From a virus (lineage: Duplodnaviria; Heunggongvirae; Uroviricota; Caudoviricetes), in the IMG/VR virus record IMGVR_UViG_2711768063_000005, positions 1-37,296 of that record: a DNA stretch of 37,296 nt. The stretch is one strand, 5' to 3'. The notes beneath the pieces are model-generated. The model made no database searches and was not told the origin of the DNA. It saw only the letters and a list, made by a program, of their open reading frames with translations. Both the position numbers and the translations under genes were made by a program. This document shows positions 1 through 19,533 of this stretch, in pieces. Numbering within the stretch: the first letter of the stretch is position 1; the number at the start of each line of letters is the position of its first letter.

Positions 1-1446
1 ATGAAAATTGAAGCCGTTTTATTCGATTTAGATAACACGTTAGCATCAACAAGTAAGCTAAAAGATATTAGAGAGCGTGGGGCTTATGATGAAATAACAG
101 AAGAATTACTATCAACAGTTAAACCATATAAAGGTACCAAAGAATTACTAGAAAATCTGATTTCAAAAGGTATAAAAACAGGTGTCGTAACTAATTCAAG
201 TAAACGTTATGCAGAAAAAATAATTTCACATTTAAATTTACCAAATTTCGGTACTGTGGTGACATATACTGATGTAGGTTCATCAGGGATGAAACCAAAT
301 CCTACTGGTATTAATTTAGCATTAAAAAATCTAGGAATCTCAAATCCGGAACGGGTCATTTATATTGGGGACGATTATACAGATATTATTGCTAGTTATT
401 ATGCGGGGGTTATACCGATTGTTCCATCATGGGCATCAAGGACTCCTGTTTCTCAAGTGCCAGCCGCCGTATTAAGCACTGAGTTCCTTATAGATAATAT
501 TGATGAGTATGAGAATATAATTCTCATGGCGGAAAATTGTGCACGACACAATAGCTTTGAATTTGAGCGAAAAAGATTCTACTTTGTACCTTTGGATGAG
601 TCCGCTAATGTAATTCCTTCAAGTGAAACTCTATCTACAATATGTCTTGGACGTTATTTTTCGCAAAAAAGTTTACTTACAACAAAATTACACGATTCGC
701 ATCCATTATCTATTGAGATCGCCAAGAAAGAGCATGACGATAATTATGTGCCTCCAGAGTATTGGGGCGATATTTTAGCGCATGCGGCAGATAATATTCC
801 ATCTTTTTTCCGGGCTACTAAAGGTTTTGATATTGTTACAGTAATACCAGCTAAAAAAGGAAAAAAAGAAAGATTAGAGAGAGTCTTAGAAAATGCGCGA
901 AGTAAAAGCAATTCCAATGCTGCTTTTATAGCTGATCTTTTTGTTTTTAGTGAGGGAGCAAAATCACTTAAGACCTTACCAAAGGATCAGCGTTCGATAG
1001 AAATAGAATCTAGTTTGCATATGAATCCCAAATATAAAGGTACGCTTGAAGGTAAGACCGTATTAATATTTGATGATGTCATTACCACAGGCTCAACCTT
1101 AAAAAGAGCTTATTCATTGTTGAGAGACGAAAACGTTAAACATAGTTTAGGATTATGCTTGGCTAAAACAGTCTCTATATTTGAAGAGGATAGGCTTTGT
1201 CCTGAATGCATGTGTCACATTCTTAAAATAAAGACAAACTCTCTAACGGGTATTCGATTTTGGGGGTGTTCAGGATATAATGATGAATCAGATAAGTGTG
1301 ATTACACTGAAAGTATCGTTGAGAAACAATGCCCTAACTGTGGTAGAGATATGGTTAAAAAGTATAATAAATGGAAGAGAGTTCGTTTTTTATCCTGTAC
1401 AGGATGGAATAAAGAACCTCGATGCAATTACACTGAGAGTGAGTGA
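1..1446 (+). CDS. Three-part fusion protein: N-terminal HAD-like hydrolase, central type I phosphoribosyltransferase (ComF-like PRTase), C-terminal tandem topoisomerase-type zinc ribbons; ShosT-like toxin candidate
   Basis: HAD motif I FDLDNTL at residues 8-14 with downstream GVVTNSS, KPNP and IGDDYTD motifs; PRTase signature GKTVLIFDDVITTGSTL; two C-terminal CxxC...GCS/SCTG...CxYTES ribbons. ATG sits exactly at window position 1, so promoter and RBS are off-window. Stop overlaps start of next gene. AT-rich. Confidence 0.75.
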   Translation: MKIEAVLFDLDNTLASTSKLKDIRERGAYDEITEELLSTVKPYKGTKELLENLISKGIKTGVVTNSSKRYAEKIISHLNLPNFGTVVTYTDVGSSGMKPNPTGINLALKNLGISNPERVIYIGDDYTDIIASYYAGVIPIVPSWASRTPVSQVPAAVLSTEFLIDNIDEYENIILMAENCARHNSFEFERKRFYFVPLDESANVIPSSETLSTICLGRYFSQKSLLTTKLHDSHPLSIEIAKKEHDDNYVPPEYWGDILAHAADNIPSFFRATKGFDIVTVIPAKKGKKERLERVLENARSKSNSNAAFIADLFVFSEGAKSLKTLPKDQRSIEIESSLHMNPKYKGTLEGKTVLIFDDVITTGSTLKRAYSLLRDENVKHSLGLCLAKTVSIFEEDRLCPECMCHILKIKTNSLTGIRFWGCSGYNDESDKCDYTESIVEKQCPNCGRDMVKKYNKWKRVRFLSCTGWNKEPRCNYTESE

Positions 1447-2429
1447 TGTTGACAATATCTCCAGACACAGAAAAATTGTTAACACTTAGTGCCCTTAAAG
1501 GAGTGGGTACTAAGTCGTTATCTAGTTTAGGCATGCTCAAAGACTTTTCTAGTTTATCTCTTGAGGAGTTGGTGAGATTATTGGGGGTTAAGGAATTAGC
1601 TTCCGATGATTTTTTAGTGGCTAGAGATTTCGCAAGAAAGAATATTGATATAGCTCATGCTAAAAATCATTCTATAATTTCATTTTTTGATGAATGTTAC
1701 CCTGATACATTAAAGGTTACTAGCGATAGACCTGCAATACTTTATTGTGCTGGTAACATTGATTGTCTGCGTAATAAATGTTTGGCGGTAATTGGTACCC
1801 GTGAACCCACTCTACATGGTGAAACGATTGCAAAAAATATCACCAAGTGGTTCACCAAAAAAGGTTGGACCATTGTAAGTGGCTTGGCTAAAGGTGTTGA
1901 TTCAATTGCTCATACCTCCGCTATTGAAAACCAAGGTAAAACAATAGCAGTCATGGCTCAGGGGTTGGAAAAAATTTATCCCAGAGAGAATAAAAAACTC
2001 GCAATGGATATTATTAGTACAGGAGGGGTATTAATTTCGGAATATGCCTATGGAAGTCATACATTTCGTAATAACTTTGTAGAGCGTGATAGAATACAGG
2101 CAGGATTATCAGCTGGGGTTTTAATGGTTCAATCTGACTTAAAAGGTGGTAGTCTGCATGCATCTCGCTCAGCAGTAAATTATGGAAGATATCTTGTTAT
2201 TCCCAATCAGTCCAGAAGAGATATTCTTAATAGCGAGCCTAAAATACAGGCTAATCTTGCATTTATGAGTGGTGATTATTATTTAATTAGATCATTATTG
2301 AAAGTTAATGGAGATATAAGTAAATCTTTAATAATTATGGAAAGCAGTAACGATTACCTTAAGGTTGAAGAGCAATTGTACGATGCCCTTCATTCATTGC
2401 ATAATCAGTATAATGGTTTTGATTTTTAA
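1446..2429 (+). CDS. DprA/Smf-like (Rossmann/SLOG fold) protein; ShosA-like antitoxin candidate
   Basis: DprA-like core LAVIGTREPT...VSGLAKGVDSIAH...TIAVMAQGL...IYP...GGVLISEY...RNNFVERDRIQAGLSAGVLMVQS...GGSLHASRSA. ATG at 1446 overlaps the TGA of the upstream gene (TGATG coupling); track ORF starts 3 nt earlier at GTG. Confidence 0.75.
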   Translation: MLTISPDTEKLLTLSALKGVGTKSLSSLGMLKDFSSLSLEELVRLLGVKELASDDFLVARDFARKNIDIAHAKNHSIISFFDECYPDTLKVTSDRPAILYCAGNIDCLRNKCLAVIGTREPTLHGETIAKNITKWFTKKGWTIVSGLAKGVDSIAHTSAIENQGKTIAVMAQGLEKIYPRENKKLAMDIISTGGVLISEYAYGSHTFRNNFVERDRIQAGLSAGVLMVQSDLKGGSLHASRSAVNYGRYLVIPNQSRRDILNSEPKIQANLAFMSGDYYLIRSLLKVNGDISKSLIIMESSNDYLKVEEQLYDALHSLHNQYNGFDF

Positions 2430-5820: not shown

Positions 5821-6256
5821 TTTGCTGCTCCTCATCATATCGACCCTGCAAGGCCGATTAGTTTCTCCACAAAACAGAGAAGAACACCTGCGGTGGCAGC
5901 CGCCCGGATGGATTGAGTTATGAGCCCGTCGTCCGGTGATGTTCTTCTCTGTTTTGTAAAAAGGACGGTACCAGCCGGAAGCAAGGGTACAAGCTGGTAC
6001 CGCCAGGACTACACACAGCATAAAGTTGTGGTGCCGGGTGCCTCCCGGTGCCTGGCGAAGGTTGCACACCAGGCGGGTGGGTATCCACAGAAGGTCGACT
6101 GTCAGCCTCAACCTTAACCCGCGTGCGCTGAGCCGCATTCACCACAACGCTAAGGATTCTCTCTGGTTGAAAATACTTAGCTGTTATGTGCCTGCTTTTA
6201 GCCACATCAGGCGAGGTGGTATCCTTTTAAGCCCGTATACATAAAAGGAAAATCAA
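5821..6256. other. GC-rich structured noncoding region; candidate ncRNA or regulatory element
   Basis: About 430 bp without a credible ORF on either strand (track ORFs here are Pro/Arg/Gly/Cys-rich); contains an 18-bp perfect inverted repeat and a 9-bp stem hairpin. Confidence 0.3.
5869..5957. repeat. 18-bp perfect inverted repeat (ACAAAACAGAGAAGAACA ... TGTTCTTCTCTGTTTTGT) enclosing a 53-nt GC-rich loop
   Basis: Arms at 5869-5886 and 5940-5957 are exact reverse complements; a second hairpin GGTACCAGC-N17-GCTGGTACC follows at 5967-6001. Confidence 0.8.
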
Positions 6257-13569: not shown

Positions 13570-13920
13570 TTGATGCGTGATATGTATGAAGTATTGGACC
13601 GCTGGGGAGCATGGGCTGCAGCAGAAAATAGTGGTGTGGACTGGCAGCCGATAGCGGCTGGTTTCAAGGGACTTTTACCACACGGTAAAAAGTCACGTCT
13701 CCAGTGTGATGATGATGAAGGCATCATGATAGATAGTTGTGTGGCTAGGTTGCGTAAATATAAGCCGGAAGAGTATGAGCTGATAATTGCTCACTTTGTT
13801 ATCGGTATCTCATTACGCACTATTGCGAAGAAGAGAAAATGCTCTGATGGGACTATAAGAAAAAAGTTGCAAGCTGCATTGGGATTTATTGATGCAGTTA
13901 TATATATAATACATGGGTAA
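13570..13920 (+). CDS. Late-gene antiterminator, Q-like (small Q family)
   Basis: GGAGAAAG RBS; 116 aa; position immediately upstream of the late promoter/lysis region; family call from memory of small phage antiterminator Q proteins. Confidence 0.5.
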   Translation: MMRDMYEVLDRWGAWAAAENSGVDWQPIAAGFKGLLPHGKKSRLQCDDDEGIMIDSCVARLRKYKPEEYELIIAHFVIGISLRTIAKKRKCSDGTIRKKLQAALGFIDAVIYIIHG

Positions 13921-13927
13921 TTTATTA

Positions 13928-13946
13928 GACGGCCATATTGGCCGTC
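13928..13946. terminator. Bidirectional hairpin between convergent Q and the cargo cassette
   Basis: Perfect inverted repeat GACGGCCA-tat-TGGCCGTC in an AT-rich context; overlaps the stop of the minus-strand gene. Confidence 0.45.
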
Positions 13947-15123
13947 AGCTAAATAAATATGTAATAGCATAAGGCGTAAGTAAAAAGTAGAATCTAAATG
14001 TAAGATATAAGCCACATAAAACTATAATTCCTAATGAGGCAAAAACAATTTTCTGAACAAGCAATCTTGTGGTTAAACTATCAAATGTATCCTTTATATC
14101 TTCGTAAATAGCCTTGAAGTTATATTCTGCTTGTTGTTTTTTATGATTTAACTCATCATTTATTGCTGTTAAAGTTTGCCATTGATTAAATAGAACAAAT
14201 AGAATCATAATAGTGAAGAACAATGCACCCAACACTACAGCTGTGTTTATTAATGCTTGACTATCCCAACCATTAGCCTGCTTCATTTGAGTCGCAACGA
14301 TAATTGTTGCGACGGGGATACCTAATATCTGATTTTGTATGTCACTGAATACTTTATGTATTTTCCCCATCTCTTCTATTTTGGCTACTCGTAACTGATC
14401 CAGTATTTTCTCGTAAGAAAAACCAGAAACGAATACTTTGTATCCTTTTTGATAACTTTCATAAAGTTGTCCTAAATCCCTTAACATGAAGGAAAAAGAG
14501 GTTTCTTTAGTTTTAGATTCACATGATGATTTTATACTACTTGCTAAAATAGTAAGTTTTTGATCTTTATGCGTATCTTCTGCAAAGTTTGCGATCAAAT
14601 TATGAATCAGATCTCCATTAACATTCATAAGATCATCGCTAGAATAATTTACTGGAATTTTTAGTACGTTGGATTCGACGAATACCAATTCAAAATTTGT
14701 TTCATCTAAATAAGCAGAACAATCTTTGAATAAAGTAATTAAGCTCAAAACATCTCTGTACTTGGATATAATAGCAGGCGACTTTTTATCCCTGTTGTGA
14801 TAATTAAGTTCGATTATAAAGAAGTTACTGGCTTCCTTTATCCTATTTTTAGGATTTTTTAAATACTCATTAAAAGAGAAATGTAGCTGCCCCAATCGTA
14901 ATTTGGGGGGGGTTATATGTAAGGTTATAGTTTGGCCTAACTCAATGTTGCCAGATTCAAGGGTGATGCCAAAATCATGGGGATTCTCTGTGATATCGTT
15001 GATGATGTCACAGAGCTCCTCGTTTGAAAGAATGAGTGATGCTTCAGATAGGGTACCTGCAAATGTAGCGGCCTTGTAAATAGTCACTAAGTCTTTGAAG
15101 GTTCTCTGATTGTTACTGCTCAT
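13945..15123 (-). CDS. Membrane-anchored protein of unknown function (about 290-aa soluble N-terminal region, two C-terminal TM helices); partner of the NA37-like gene
   Basis: ATG at 15123 with AGGTG 6 nt upstream, inside the last codons of the upstream gene (11-nt overlap, coupling). Hydrophobic segments ALINTAVVLGALFFTIMILFVLF and IVFASLGIIVLCGLYLTFRFYFLL near the C-terminus. AT-rich. No family recognised. Confidence 0.7.
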   Translation of the reverse strand: MSSNNQRTFKDLVTIYKAATFAGTLSEASLILSNEELCDIINDITENPHDFGITLESGNIELGQTITLHITPPKLRLGQLHFSFNEYLKNPKNRIKEASNFFIIELNYHNRDKKSPAIISKYRDVLSLITLFKDCSAYLDETNFELVFVESNVLKIPVNYSSDDLMNVNGDLIHNLIANFAEDTHKDQKLTILASSIKSSCESKTKETSFSFMLRDLGQLYESYQKGYKVFVSGFSYEKILDQLRVAKIEEMGKIHKVFSDIQNQILGIPVATIIVATQMKQANGWDSQALINTAVVLGALFFTIMILFVLFNQWQTLTAINDELNHKKQQAEYNFKAIYEDIKDTFDSLTTRLLVQKIVFASLGIIVLCGLYLTFRFYFLLTPYAITYLFS

Positions 15124-16147
15124 CCTCTTCACCTAATTCTGATAAAATCTCTGATCTTAGCGTATCCGGAATCTCGGTAAGTATCAATTTATCGTTTTCT
15201 GAATCATAAAGAACGCTGCCATCATGCAAGGCCGCACGCTCGAATTTCAGAGACCAATGTTTGGACTTTCCTTTGAAACTAACAAGCCCACGTATAACGT
15301 TGCCATCAGGCACGAACCCATCAGAGAACTCCAGATCGTCATTGGTTAACTTTTCAACTAACAACTCAGGAGCAGTTGGCCATATCTCGTTTGCAAAAAT
15401 TTGAGTGTCGAAAGTTTCACCAGAACGATTTAAATTTTTTAATTTTTCATGAGCCTTATTTAGGAACTCTTCACGTGCCTCTGGTTCAAAACCTCTTTCA
15501 GTAGCAAATTCTAAAAGTGCATTCCGTAATTTTGTTGTTTCTTGTTTGGCAATTAGAATATCGTTGCAACCTAAAAACTTTTTGAAATAACCTGCTACTG
15601 AATTTTGCCCCTTTAGAAAGCTAATATATCTCTCTTTGCCATTCTGGCGCCCAGTTAAGTCAATTCGTCCCGCTACTCGAAGTTTAGCAATGTCTAGATA
15701 TTCACTTTCTTGAATTTCAAAATCGTGGACTGAAGAGCCAACTGCTGATGTTAGGATTGCAACCATCAAATAATGATTTCCATTTACCTCATTATGGGCA
15801 ATTATTACATAACCACCAGTAGACATTGATTCATCATCGGCTCTGGCTTTTAAATGATTGATCATTCGGATACTAGTATCATAAAAACTATGTGTTTTAT
15901 TTACGAAATAATCATCAACGATATTACCCATAGGGTAACTATCGCGGTCATCTTCAAATTTCCCATATCCTTTACCTGCTCTCCCAGAGTACCTTTCAGT
16001 AAGTGCGTTAGAGAGGTCTTTTGATGCTTGCTGAACAGGTTTTTCTGAAGGACAAGGAATAATGGTGGCTAACCCCTGTTGTTCCTTGTTCATAATGTGA
16101 ACAATAAACTTATGAGTGATATTAGTGGGGGTCGCTGATGCAGTCAT
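15113..16147 (-). CDS. NdpA/YejK-like nucleoid-associated protein homologue (NA37 family), phage-encoded
   Basis: Full-length collinearity with E. coli YejK as I recall it: [22 protein letters not shown] vs [38 protein letters not shown] vs [25 protein letters not shown]...FLG vs TRYLTFLKG...FLG. AAGGA RBS 8 nt upstream of the ATG; AT-rich. Confidence 0.8.
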   Translation of the reverse strand: [344 protein letters not shown]

Positions 16148-16437: not shown

Positions 16438-16764
16438 ATGCCTCATAACCCAAATACTTGGCTGGAGTTGGTCCAGAGCTGGTGGCGTGGAGACACACCG
16501 CTGGGCGCAGTGATTATGTCGATTGTTATGGCTGGTTTGCGCATTGCCTATTTTGGCGGTGGTGGTGGCTGGAAGCGAAAAACACTCGAAATTCTACTCT
16601 GTGGCGCTCTGACGCTGACTTTTGCATCCGCTCTTGAGTATGTCGGATGGCCTAAATCGCTTTCTGTTGCCATTGGTGGTGGGGTGGGGCTGATCGGTGT
16701 CGATGCTATTCGTGGGGCTGCAATGAGAGTAATCGGTAATAAGTTTGGTGGCTCTAAGGAGTAA
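16438..16764 (+). CDS. S: Holin (lambda S-like class I)
   Basis: GAGGTGA RBS; 108 aa with hydrophobic segments and charged C-terminus; directly upstream of the endolysin; pattern resembles lambda S. Confidence 0.8.
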   Translation: MPHNPNTWLELVQSWWRGDTPLGAVIMSIVMAGLRIAYFGGGGGWKRKTLEILLCGALTLTFASALEYVGWPKSLSVAIGGGVGLIGVDAIRGAAMRVIGNKFGGSKE

Positions 16765-16767
16765 TTT

Positions 16768-17244
16768 ATGCAGGTACTAAATTCCCAGCGTAAAGCTTTC
16801 CTCGATATGGTGGCATGGTCAGAAGGAACGGATAACGGGCGACAACCGACACGTAACCACGGTTATGATGTTATTGTTGGTGGTGAACTGTTCACTGATT
16901 ACTCCGATCACCCTCGCAAACTTGTCACGCTAAACCCAAAACTCAAATCAACAGCCGCCGGACGTTACCAGCTTCTTTCCCGTTGGTGGGATGCCTACCG
17001 TAAGCAGCTTGGCCTGAAAGACTTCTCTCCAAAAAGCCAGGACGCTGTGGCATTGCAGCAGATTAAGGAGCGTGGCGCTTTACCGATGATTGATCGCGGT
17101 GATATTCGTCAGGCTATCGACCGTTGCAGCAATATCTGGGCTTCACTGCCGGGCGCTGGTTATGGCCAGTTCGAGCATAAGGCTGACAGCCTGATTGCAA
17201 AATTCAAAGAGGCTGGCGGAACGGTCAGAGAGATTGAGGTATGA
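16768..17244 (+). CDS. R: Endolysin, lambda R-type lytic transglycosylase
   Basis: 158 aa; [58 protein letters not shown]... matches lambda R nearly residue for residue as I recall it. Confidence 0.95.
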
Positions 17245-17678
17245 GCAGAGTCACCGCGATTATCTCCGCTCTGATTATCTGCATCATCGTCTGCCTGTCA
17301 TGGGCTGTTAATCATTACCGTGATAACGCCATCGCCTACAAAGAGCAGCGCGATAAAGCCACATCCATCATCGCTGACATGCAGAAGCGTCAACGTGATG
17401 TAGCAGAACTCGACGCCAGATATACAAAGGAGCTTGCTGATGCTAACGCGACTATCGAAAGTCTCCGTGCTGATGTTTCTGCTGGGCGTAAGCGCCTGCA
17501 AGTCGCCGCCACCTGTGCAAAGTCAACGACCGGAGCCAGCAGCATGGGCGATGGAGAAAGCCCAGGACTTACAGCAGATGCTGAACTCAATTATTACCGT
17601 CTCCGAAGTGGAATCGACAGGATAACCGCGCAGGTTAACTACCTGCAGGAATACATCAGGACGCAATGCCTTCGATGA
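17241..17678 (+). CDS. Rz: i-spanin Rz
   Basis: N-terminal signal-anchor [30 protein letters not shown] matches lambda Rz; coiled-coil periplasmic domain. Confidence 0.85.
17434..17625 (+). CDS. Rz1: o-spanin Rz1 lipoprotein, embedded in the +1 frame of Rz
   Basis: Lipobox LLGVSAC followed by a proline-rich segment ([16 protein letters not shown]), entirely within Rz, as in lambda. Confidence 0.8.
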
Positions 17679-17867
17679 TAGCGATAATTTTACTCATCAT
17701 CCTTCACATCTGGCTCTGTAGACAGGGTGATGCTTACTTCTGGAGCGAATCCAGATTAAACATCTCATTGCTGATGCTTGATATTGAGCATCTGGCGCGC
17801 GGTAAGGGCTGTGTTGAGATAAGTGCCAGTTCATTACAAAGCTATATCTAATGGAACCTGAAATAAT

Positions 17868-17885
17868 TTGTCATTGTCATGACAA
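17868..17885. promoter_or_regulatory. TTGTCAT direct repeat plus 12-bp perfect palindrome TTGTCATGACAA overlapping a -35-like hexamer upstream of the first moron gene
   Basis: TTGTCA-N16-TAATGA promoter-like arrangement; palindrome could be an operator. Confidence 0.3.
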
Positions 17886-17928
17886 GAAAATTCATTAATG
17901 ATGAGCTCTCATTATACGGGAGGTAGAT

Positions 17929-18177
17929 ATGGCATTTCGTTATTTTGAACTTACCGAAAATATTCCTTTTGAGGATGCAAGAGAGCTTCACGTACAGTTC
18001 AAACACCACTTAGAATATGTTGTAAAGGCGTTATTTATGCCAGGAACACATGAAAAGCATTTAATTGTTGAAGGCCGGGATGACGAATCGATAACACAGA
18101 TATTTGGTGGGCATGATGAAAAGTTTATGCATCTTTATCATATCGATGAATATGAAAAATGTGAAGACTTAATCTAA
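17929..18177 (+). CDS. Hypothetical small His-rich protein (82 aa), moron
   Basis: GGGAGG RBS at 6-nt spacing; AT-rich; no recognised family. Confidence 0.5.
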   Translation: MAFRYFELTENIPFEDARELHVQFKHHLEYVVKALFMPGTHEKHLIVEGRDDESITQIFGGHDEKFMHLYHIDEYEKCEDLI

Positions 18178-18292
18178 CCTCCTACGACTGTTTTTATTGC
18201 CATCATAAAAGCCATTCCTTGCAGAGTGGCTTTGATAATGGATATCCCAACAAGCGGATAAGACAATAAATATACCCACCAAGGGATAAACA

Positions 18293-18808
18293 ATGTCTAA
18301 AATCACGGTTACACCTGCATAGCAGATCCGCTTAAACCTGCTGGCGAAACTGAACTATGACACCGCCGCTGCAGCAGACGCGATTAAGTTTGTTGGTGAC
18401 GATCCGTTGAAGTATCAAATCTTTGTGAACCAGTTAAGCTGGGTAACATCTGAAAGCGGGCTGGTAGCCAGAACGACGAAAGCTATCAAAGAGTCGGAAG
18501 ACACACTACTGTGGTTTGAAGCTGAATCTGGTTCATACGTGAATGAATGTGGTAATTTAATTCTCCGCAAAAAAAAGGGGATAAAAATGCCAAAGAATGT
18601 CATAGCTATTTTACCGGGTGACGCGTTTGATCATGTTGTTGTCCAGGACGACCTGGAGATTGTTACCTTCAGGGGTGACAAGGGCGGCGTGCTTACTATG
18701 CCTATCGAGGAGTACGAACTAGACGGGATAAGTTATAACGTCGCACGTTGTGACGGTATGGTCACTGACGAAAAAGTTGAGAAGGCTATCAGACACTTCA
18801 CCAAGTAA
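18293..18808 (+). pseudogene. 172-codon reading frame interrupted by a single in-frame amber (TAG) at codon 10; candidate pseudogene or suppression/reinitiation-dependent gene
   Basis: ATG at 18293 with AAGGGA RBS; TAG at 18320-18322; frame continues uninterrupted to 18808 (the track ORF begins at TTG 18407 in the same frame); strong terminator follows. Confidence 0.4.
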
Positions 18809-18825
18809 TAATCAGCTTCCGAACC

Positions 18826-18850
18826 AAGCCTCGCAATAGCGAGGCTTTTT
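18826..18850 (+). terminator. Rho-independent terminator
   Basis: AAGCCTCGC-aata-GCGAGGCTTTTT. Confidence 0.65.
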
Positions 18851-18862
18851 AACGACAGAGGT

Positions 18863-19057
18863 ATGACAGTGGTTCTTACAGCTAAGCAGTTTGAAGACCT
18901 TGCATCCTTCGCGAAGGAAGATAGCCAGCCTCAATACACCATCGCAACCGGAATAATCCCAGAATTCGAAGATGATTGTGAGTTTATCCCCGTTTATGCC
19001 GGGCTCATCGCTTATTTAGAGTTACTGAATCACGGTGTATTGCAACTCGACCACTAG
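18863..19057 (+). CDS. Hypothetical small acidic protein (64 aa)
   Basis: ORF between two terminators; RBS spacing poor (GAGG immediately before the ATG), so uncertain. Confidence 0.35.
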   Translation: MTVVLTAKQFEDLASFAKEDSQPQYTIATGIIPEFEDDCEFIPVYAGLIAYLELLNHGVLQLDH

Positions 19058-19131
19058 CGACATTACGCCAAGTATTCATCAAGTGCCTAGTTTAATGTTA
19101 AATTATTCCCTCATTCCTAAAAGGGAATGTT

Positions 19132-19533
19132 ATGAAAATAGATCACGAGTATTTGAAAGGTCTTTTGGAAGCTTTCGAGGCGTCTGAAGAGCCGCATACT
19201 GATATAAAGCAGCTGCAGCTGGCTGGGTATGACTACAGCACCGATGAATTTTTATTCCATATGCGTTTATTGGCTGATCGTCAACTAATTGCTAGAACAG
19301 ACGGCAAGTATGGGTTTGGTTTCTCTGAGGCTGCTGAGGGAGGATCATGGTTCGTTATACCGTTACGATTAACTTCAAGCGGTCATGACTTCCTTGAAGC
19401 TCTCAGGAATAAAGAGGTTTGGAATTCTCTCAAGACCGGCTTTAAAGATGCAAGCATTGGAACATTAGTTGACGTTTCAAGGCGTTTGCTGGATGGTTAT
19501 ATTCAGAAAAAAATTGACGACTTAATTGGCTAA
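19132..19533 (+). CDS. Hypothetical protein (133 aa), moron; possibly DUF2513-like
   Basis: AAGGGAA RBS; small hairpin overlapping the RBS (TTCCCT...AGGGAA); own terminator downstream. Confidence 0.55.
   Translation: MKIDHEYLKGLLEAFEASEEPHTDIKQLQLAGYDYSTDEFLFHMRLLADRQLIARTDGKYGFGFSEAAEGGSWFVIPLRLTSSGHDFLEALRNKEVWNSLKTGFKDASIGTLVDVSRRLLDGYIQKKIDDLIG

Follow-up and report, generated by a model that had tools for sequence, protein, structure and literature searches.

Does the reading frame that opens at position 18293 of this viral DNA, 172 codons long and interrupted by a single in-frame amber codon at position 10, represent a disrupted gene, a gene expressed by restart downstream of the stop, or a gene that depends on amber suppression? 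We addressed this question by comparison with homologous proteins and loci; in the following, the window denotes the whole stretch of 37,296 nucleotides that was analysed, gene 1 the first 82 codons of the frame and gene 2 its last 73 sense codons, and L numbers are our handles for compared loci.

Architecture of the reading frame

The sequence-only reading had described an ATG at 18293 with an AAGGGA ribosome-binding site, a TAG at 18320-18322 and a frame of 172 codons, and each of these elements is present as described. The long frame comprises 171 codon positions and a stop, being open past the TAG to a TAA at 18806-18808, with a second TAA at 18809-18811. The region contains the following features.

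18281..18286, plus strand: Shine-Dalgarno-like AAGGGA, 6 bases 5' of the DUF2560 ATG at 18293 (direct sequence reading)
18293..18538, plus strand: remnant of a DUF2560 (PF10834, phrog_571) gene, 81 codons and codon 82; putative pseudogene with two lesions
18320..18322, plus strand: amber TAG at codon 10, from CAG (Gln) by a C-to-T transition
18407..18409, plus strand: candidate restart TTG at codon 39, the first in-frame canonical start past the TAG
18425, plus strand: candidate restart GTG at codon 45, the next in-frame start after the TTG at 18407
18536..18538, plus strand: lost DUF2560 stop at codon 82, TAC in the window and TAA in sister copies
18574..18580, plus strand: Shine-Dalgarno-like AAGGGGA of gene 2, 6 bases 5' of the ATG at 18587 (sequence reading)
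18587..18808, plus strand: gene 2, intact, 73 codons, product identical to WP_001125701.1
18826..18850, plus strand: intrinsic terminator-like hairpin AAGCCTCGC-AATA-GCGAGGCTT with T tract (RNA folding)

The start codon and ribosome-binding site of gene 1 have thus been retained despite the TAG, and an equivalent purine-rich motif is also found 5' of DUF2560 in relatives, reading AGGGGA in five copies from E. coli and AGAGGA in both L011 and L017. The strong terminator previously placed after the frame is likewise borne out, as a 9-bp G+C-rich hairpin (18826-18847) 3' of the TAA runs into a five-T tract (18846-18850), with a folding energy of -16 kcal/mol and z = -5.2 versus shuffled sequences. 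A simple terminator scan of 17600-19300 reported none and the hairpin was seen later by folding; the scan apparently missed it since the stem takes up part of the T-run.

Homology of gene 1 and the residue at codon 10

With codon 10 read as glutamine, residues 5-72 of gene 1 align to positions 2-69 of the 72-position Pfam DUF2560 profile (E = 4.7e-14), scoring 52.8 bits against a cut-off of 25, and the gene also matches the PHROG family phrog_571 (E = 1.1e-23). A protein search returned 42 relatives, the intact ones of about 81 amino acids and the closest of these approximately 85-90% identical to gene 1. The 81-residue homologues span 99% of the protein reconstructed from the first 82 codons; they begin at the same upstream ATG, with the conserved N-terminus MSEITVTPAQQIRLNLL, and end in ...ESGS, and the 32 intact homologues of about 81 residues open with MSEITVTPAQQIRL. 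Within a phage collection, relatives of DUF2560 were detected only by tblastn, in phages of Klebsiella, Escherichia and Salmonella; nucleotide searches with the region (megablast and blastn) gave no matches there.

For an intact homologue, AlphaFold gives a confident model (pLDDT 92) of a small protein built of four helices, at residues 8-19, 24-34, 38-50 and 57-79. Foldseek comparison of this model to solved structures gave no significant match (best E-value 2.1), PADLOC matched neither DUF2560 nor gene 2, and a literature search listed two papers that mention the name DUF2560, in neither case in the title or abstract. The family comprises small proteins encoded by lambdoid and other temperate phages of enterobacteria. 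Gene 1 shares with it the 81-codon length, the N-terminus and the genomic position between lysis cassette and small terminase/HNH genes, whereas it differs by a stop in place of Gln10, a tyrosine in place of the stop at codon 82 and the replacement of several conserved residues.

Position 10 is occupied by glutamine in 31 of the 32 intact DUF2560 proteins. The same holds at the DNA level, where the nine homologous loci inspected for a sense codon carry CAG (L008, L009, L011, L017, L023, L024, L027 and L028) or CAA (L012), and homologues without the TAG have Gln or Glu codons at this position. These data support the option, raised earlier from the letters alone, of a nonsense mutation giving rise to a pseudogene.

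Alternatively, the stretch from the ATG to the TAG could be a short leader ORF, with the true gene starting downstream, as suggested by the starts that PGAP and other callers place past the TAG. However, all intact homologues use the upstream ATG, homologues starting downstream were not seen, and the nine codons preceding the TAG constitute a conserved N-terminus that matches the Pfam profile from its position 2, in agreement with a disrupted gene. Since glutamine is conserved at codon 10 and the upstream codons represent the family N-terminus, the stretch is not a leader ORF; this reading is refuted by the homologue alignment, and we consider it hardly credible.

Spread of the amber allele

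The TAG is found in all seven near-identical E. coli copies and in a human-gut metagenome contig (L015). Six complete E. coli genomes (strains 2c3, 20, MEI7BO1-21, SC407, SC406 and SC422) carry the same 1.2 kb at 99.6-99.9% identity, all with the TAG, and RefSeq/NCBI proteins that start just past it are present on about 170 contigs. Beyond this one lineage the stop is not conserved across diverged homologues. A metagenome scan recovered one TAG copy as well as three CAG copies belonging to other lineages, and a search of species-representative genomes with an allele-specific pattern (Y at the mutated base) gave no match. An intact version of the allele, with K3, W50 and W74, was absent from 5.8 billion clustered proteins, the metagenome scan and the genome scan.

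On this comparative basis, the TAG at codon 10 is best described as a C-to-T nonsense mutation common to every known copy of this e14-like prophage allele. The mutation had been supposed to be recent, which stands in a relative sense only, as numerous E. coli assemblies contain the allele. The same TAG occurs in six complete genomes that are independent of each other, in one metagenome contig and in numerous draft assemblies; this also refutes the trivial explanation of a sequencing or assembly error, whose probability is practically nil.

Two genes in one frame

The 162 codons downstream of the TAG had been judged protein-like. They are, however, not one protein but comprise the rest of DUF2560, a 48-base spacer and a 73-codon gene. 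Codon 82 (18536-18538) is TAA in strains 20, MEI7BO1-21, SC407, SC406 and SC422 and in the metagenome contig L015, and TAA or TGA in all nine intact homologue loci examined; among the eight TAG copies, TAC occurs only in the window and strain 2c3.

An intact DUF2560 gene and the 73-codon gene are found together in five loci (L017, L023, L024, L027 and L028), separated by spacers of 46-63 bases compared to 48 bases in the window, and in the same relative frame in two loci and different frames in three. None of the relatives examined has a single 172-codon gene; the two halves are kept as separate genes of 81 and 73 codons. Because DUF2560 and gene 2 are separate, and in varying frame, elsewhere, the 172-codon frame is, as far as the compared loci allow, an accident of the window/2c3 sub-lineage, generated through a TAA-to-TAC change.

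Gene 2 is annotated on its own by PGAP in five sister genomes (WP_001125701.1, from the ATG at 18587), the exact 73-residue protein is present on 465 contigs, and this length recurs in almost every homologue from Citrobacter, Enterobacter or E. coli. Its Shine-Dalgarno motif is kept in L017, L018 and L020, and with an omega of 0.06-0.12 the gene is under purifying selection. Neither Pfam nor PHROG provided a family for the protein, and tblastn of gene 2 against the phage collection returned nothing.

In loci without gene 2 (L008, L009, L011 and L012), a GGCCTCGC...GCGGGGCTTT hairpin lies directly 3' of the DUF2560 stop and resembles the terminator AAGCCTCGC...GCGAGGCTT that follows gene 2 in the window. 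Comparison with window positions 18539-18586 suggests that gene 2 may have entered between DUF2560 and the terminator, or may have been lost from there in the other loci.

As a separate observation, L025 (1083-1451) and L026 (1095-1451) carry, 5' of the 73-codon gene, a chimeric gene of 118-122 residues that combines an N-terminal Terminase_2-like fragment with the C-terminal two thirds of DUF2560.

Signs of decay in gene 1

The window remnant lacks the uninterrupted frame of about 81 codons seen in the family, with TAG at codon 10 and TAC in place of the stop at codon 82. In addition, the TAG allele departs from its relatives at six columns that are at least 90% conserved among the 32 intact homologues (E3K, Q10*, R50W, E70D, A71T and L74W). 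Intact homologues show on average 1.1 such departures, and the count of the TAG allele is reached by a single intact member, which is much more divergent; the conserved residues of DUF2560 are hence not maintained in this allele. An omega of 0.31 was obtained for the TAG allele versus its closest intact relative, compared to 0.07-0.14 for intact pairs. The window branch has accumulated six non-synonymous and seven synonymous changes, a distribution that is not significant, though in the expected direction (Fisher p = 0.32).

Persistence of an open frame downstream of the TAG carries little information in this respect, because the TAG copies are nearly identical. Moreover, the changes at codons 70-74 and 80-81 adjoin a mosaic junction, and could stem from recombination with a divergent allele instead of drift. 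Other copies of the TAG allele have further lesions, namely D36E, T52I, N21Y or extra N-terminal truncations. Taking the two stops and the conserved positions as a guide, gene 1 of the window is to be regarded as a pseudogene derived from a DUF2560 member rather than a functional member.

The gene has decayed independently in five Citrobacter freundii/E. coli loci (L018-L022, approximately positions 2200-2500), in prophages with Nu1/GpA or P27-type terminases. There, DUF2560 carries a +1 insertion near codon 26, a GAG-to-TAG change at codon 67 and a TAA-to-CAA change at codon 82, and gene 2 is intact. As a frameshift has destroyed the gene independently in this other lineage, DUF2560 is dispensable. 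Both decayed lineages carry gene 2, raising the idea that gene 2 renders DUF2560 redundant or incompatible; this is ruled out by the five loci in which both genes are intact.

The pattern is that of ordinary decay of accessory, 'moron-like' prophage genes, likewise with a nonsense mutation followed by further lesions, parallel decay elsewhere and intact neighbours. The window differs only by the second mutation, which joins the dead frame to a live gene.

Readthrough and restart

Could the amber codon nevertheless be decoded? In E. coli, termination at a UAG is comparatively leaky when C follows, and supE-type or near-cognate decoding of UAG inserts glutamine. Codon 10 might accordingly be read as Gln, by a near-cognate tRNA-Gln or a host amber suppressor, with the TAG serving as an attenuator for low expression. 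Compatible with this idea, glutamine is the ancestral residue, the initiation signals are intact and the allele is widespread, given the approximately 170 contigs.

However, the replacements E3K, R50W and L74W are radical and fall at invariant or near-invariant positions, other copies are further truncated, and DUF2560 has been lost by frameshift elsewhere. In the window, readthrough would furthermore continue into gene 2 following loss of the codon-82 stop, which is unlikely to be tolerated in a gene that is used. ARAGORN detected no tRNA gene in the 37-kb window, and Rfam matched no element, with none conserved after the UAG; amber suppression, one of the options raised at the outset, is thus left without positive support, the window encoding no suppressor tRNA.

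Gene 1 resembles genes with programmed readthrough or amber suppression in that a single in-frame UAG interrupts an open homologous frame and in that the amino acid expected to be inserted, Gln, is the ancestral one. It differs from them as the UAG is limited to one very recent lineage, as a nearby suppressor tRNA or RNA element is missing and as constraint downstream is relaxed. Taken together, we consider readthrough of this codon very unlikely.

Restart is the other option. Initiation at the TTG (codon 39) or the GTG (codon 45) would yield a 43-residue C-terminal fragment in most copies and a 133-residue fusion in the window. Both codons are in frame, both are derived synonymous changes of the TAG lineage only (CTG to TTG and GTT to GTG), a GGTGA lies 7 bases 5' of the TTG, and PGAP predicts a 141-residue fused protein in strain 2c3.

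On the other hand, the fragment would miss the first two of the four modelled helices, two synonymous changes that yield NTG codons may easily arise by chance, and the fusion exists in only two of the eight copies. Gene 2 is in addition preceded by a conserved ribosome-binding site of its own, and in all intact relatives examined it stands alone as a gene of 73 residues, in variable frame. Reinitiation, too, was proposed before and gains no positive support here, and the chances of restart are in our view slimmer still.

The TTG at 18407 and the GTG at 18425 are the only canonical in-frame starts that the remnant has after the TAG, and their origin in the TAG lineage is probably a matter of chance.

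Considering both routes jointly, a TAG allele that is retuned rather than dead, through Gln-inserting readthrough at UAG-C or through restart at the TTG or GTG, has little likelihood. If true, restart in the window and strain 2c3 would create a new 133-residue fusion of the C-terminal half of DUF2560 and the 73-residue protein, and hence a minor case of a gene born in a prophage through loss of a stop codon.

Database annotation

PGAP places the starts of its DUF2560 entries at ATC 18326 (70 residues) or ATT 18383 (51 residues, or 141 residues in strain 2c3). We read these ATC and ATT starts as products of homology-guided calling, which stretched the frame as far as the amber codon; this also counts against their use as an argument for restart. 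The 70-, 51- and 141-residue 'DUF2560 family protein' entries of RefSeq are therefore pseudogene artefacts, ATC and ATT not being real starts, and in strain 2c3 the 141-residue protein is chimeric, combining a dead gene with a live gene.

Proposed course of events

Based on the comparisons above, we propose, with a probability of roughly 88%, that gene 1 is an ordinary decaying nonsense pseudogene, the frame of which was fused to that of an intact neighbour by a secondary loss of its stop codon. The prophage carries a two-gene accessory module, in which 48 bases separate the DUF2560 gene of 81 codons from the 73-codon gene. In the prophage lineage, a C-to-T change at codon 10 converted CAG to TAG, so that ribosomes initiating at the retained start signals would stop after nine residues, leaving a pseudogene. 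Freed of selection, gene 1 presumably drifted.

Later, in the sub-lineage of the window and strain 2c3, a change of TAA to TAC brought the dead gene and its spacer into one 172-codon frame with the live gene 2, which is likely translated separately from the ATG at 18587. The comparisons show the homology, the ancestral codons, the division into two genes, where the lesions occur and that gene 2 is under purifying selection. We infer that no useful DUF2560 protein is made, and residual expression through readthrough or restart is unlikely.

Nonsense decay of a dispensable prophage accessory gene is routine. The finding hence carries little biological weight and is of practical value for annotation. 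The pairing of DUF2560 with the 73-residue gene, which is conserved in several phage backgrounds, may offer an entry point to both proteins.

Prophage context and neighbouring genes

The window is 99.987% identical, without gaps, to positions 3770380-3807675 of the chromosome of E. coli strain 2c3. According to the annotation of that genome, the region represents an e14-like prophage adjoining icd, with intE, xisE, ymfL, ymfR and ymfQ present. The lysis genes of the prophage encode a lambda-type holin, a GH24 endolysin and Rz. After them come genes for an HNH endonuclease and a P27-type small terminase, an HK97-type head and a contractile tail, and genes 1 and 2 are among the small genes that separate the lysis cassette from the HNH and terminase genes.

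Several minor observations were made elsewhere in the window. Another frame of the Rz gene (17241-17678) holds a 63-codon ORF (17434-17625, plus strand) that encodes an Rz1-type lipoprotein (o-spanin), with a Pfam Rz1 match of E = 2.4e-20 and the lipobox LLGVSAC; PGAP leaves Rz1 unannotated in strain 2c3.

The interval from the Q antiterminator to the holin is a classic position for cargo genes. In the window, where Q lies at 13570-13920 and the holin at 16438, this interval contains two minus-strand genes (13945-16147), one encoding a 392-residue protein without a Pfam family and the other a 344-residue homologue of the 37-kDa nucleoid-associated protein (PF04245, E = 8e-69); PADLOC gave no match for either.

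At approximately 5835-6145 (minus strand), PGAP annotates a frameshifted hypothetical CDS in strain 2c3 (L007, 7936-8246), which is possibly a second pseudogene in the same prophage. Finally, positions 1-2429 (plus strand) hold genes for a HAD-IA family hydrolase and DprA, between icd and the integrase in the 2c3 annotation, and the start of the window coincides exactly with that of the HAD-IA hydrolase gene.
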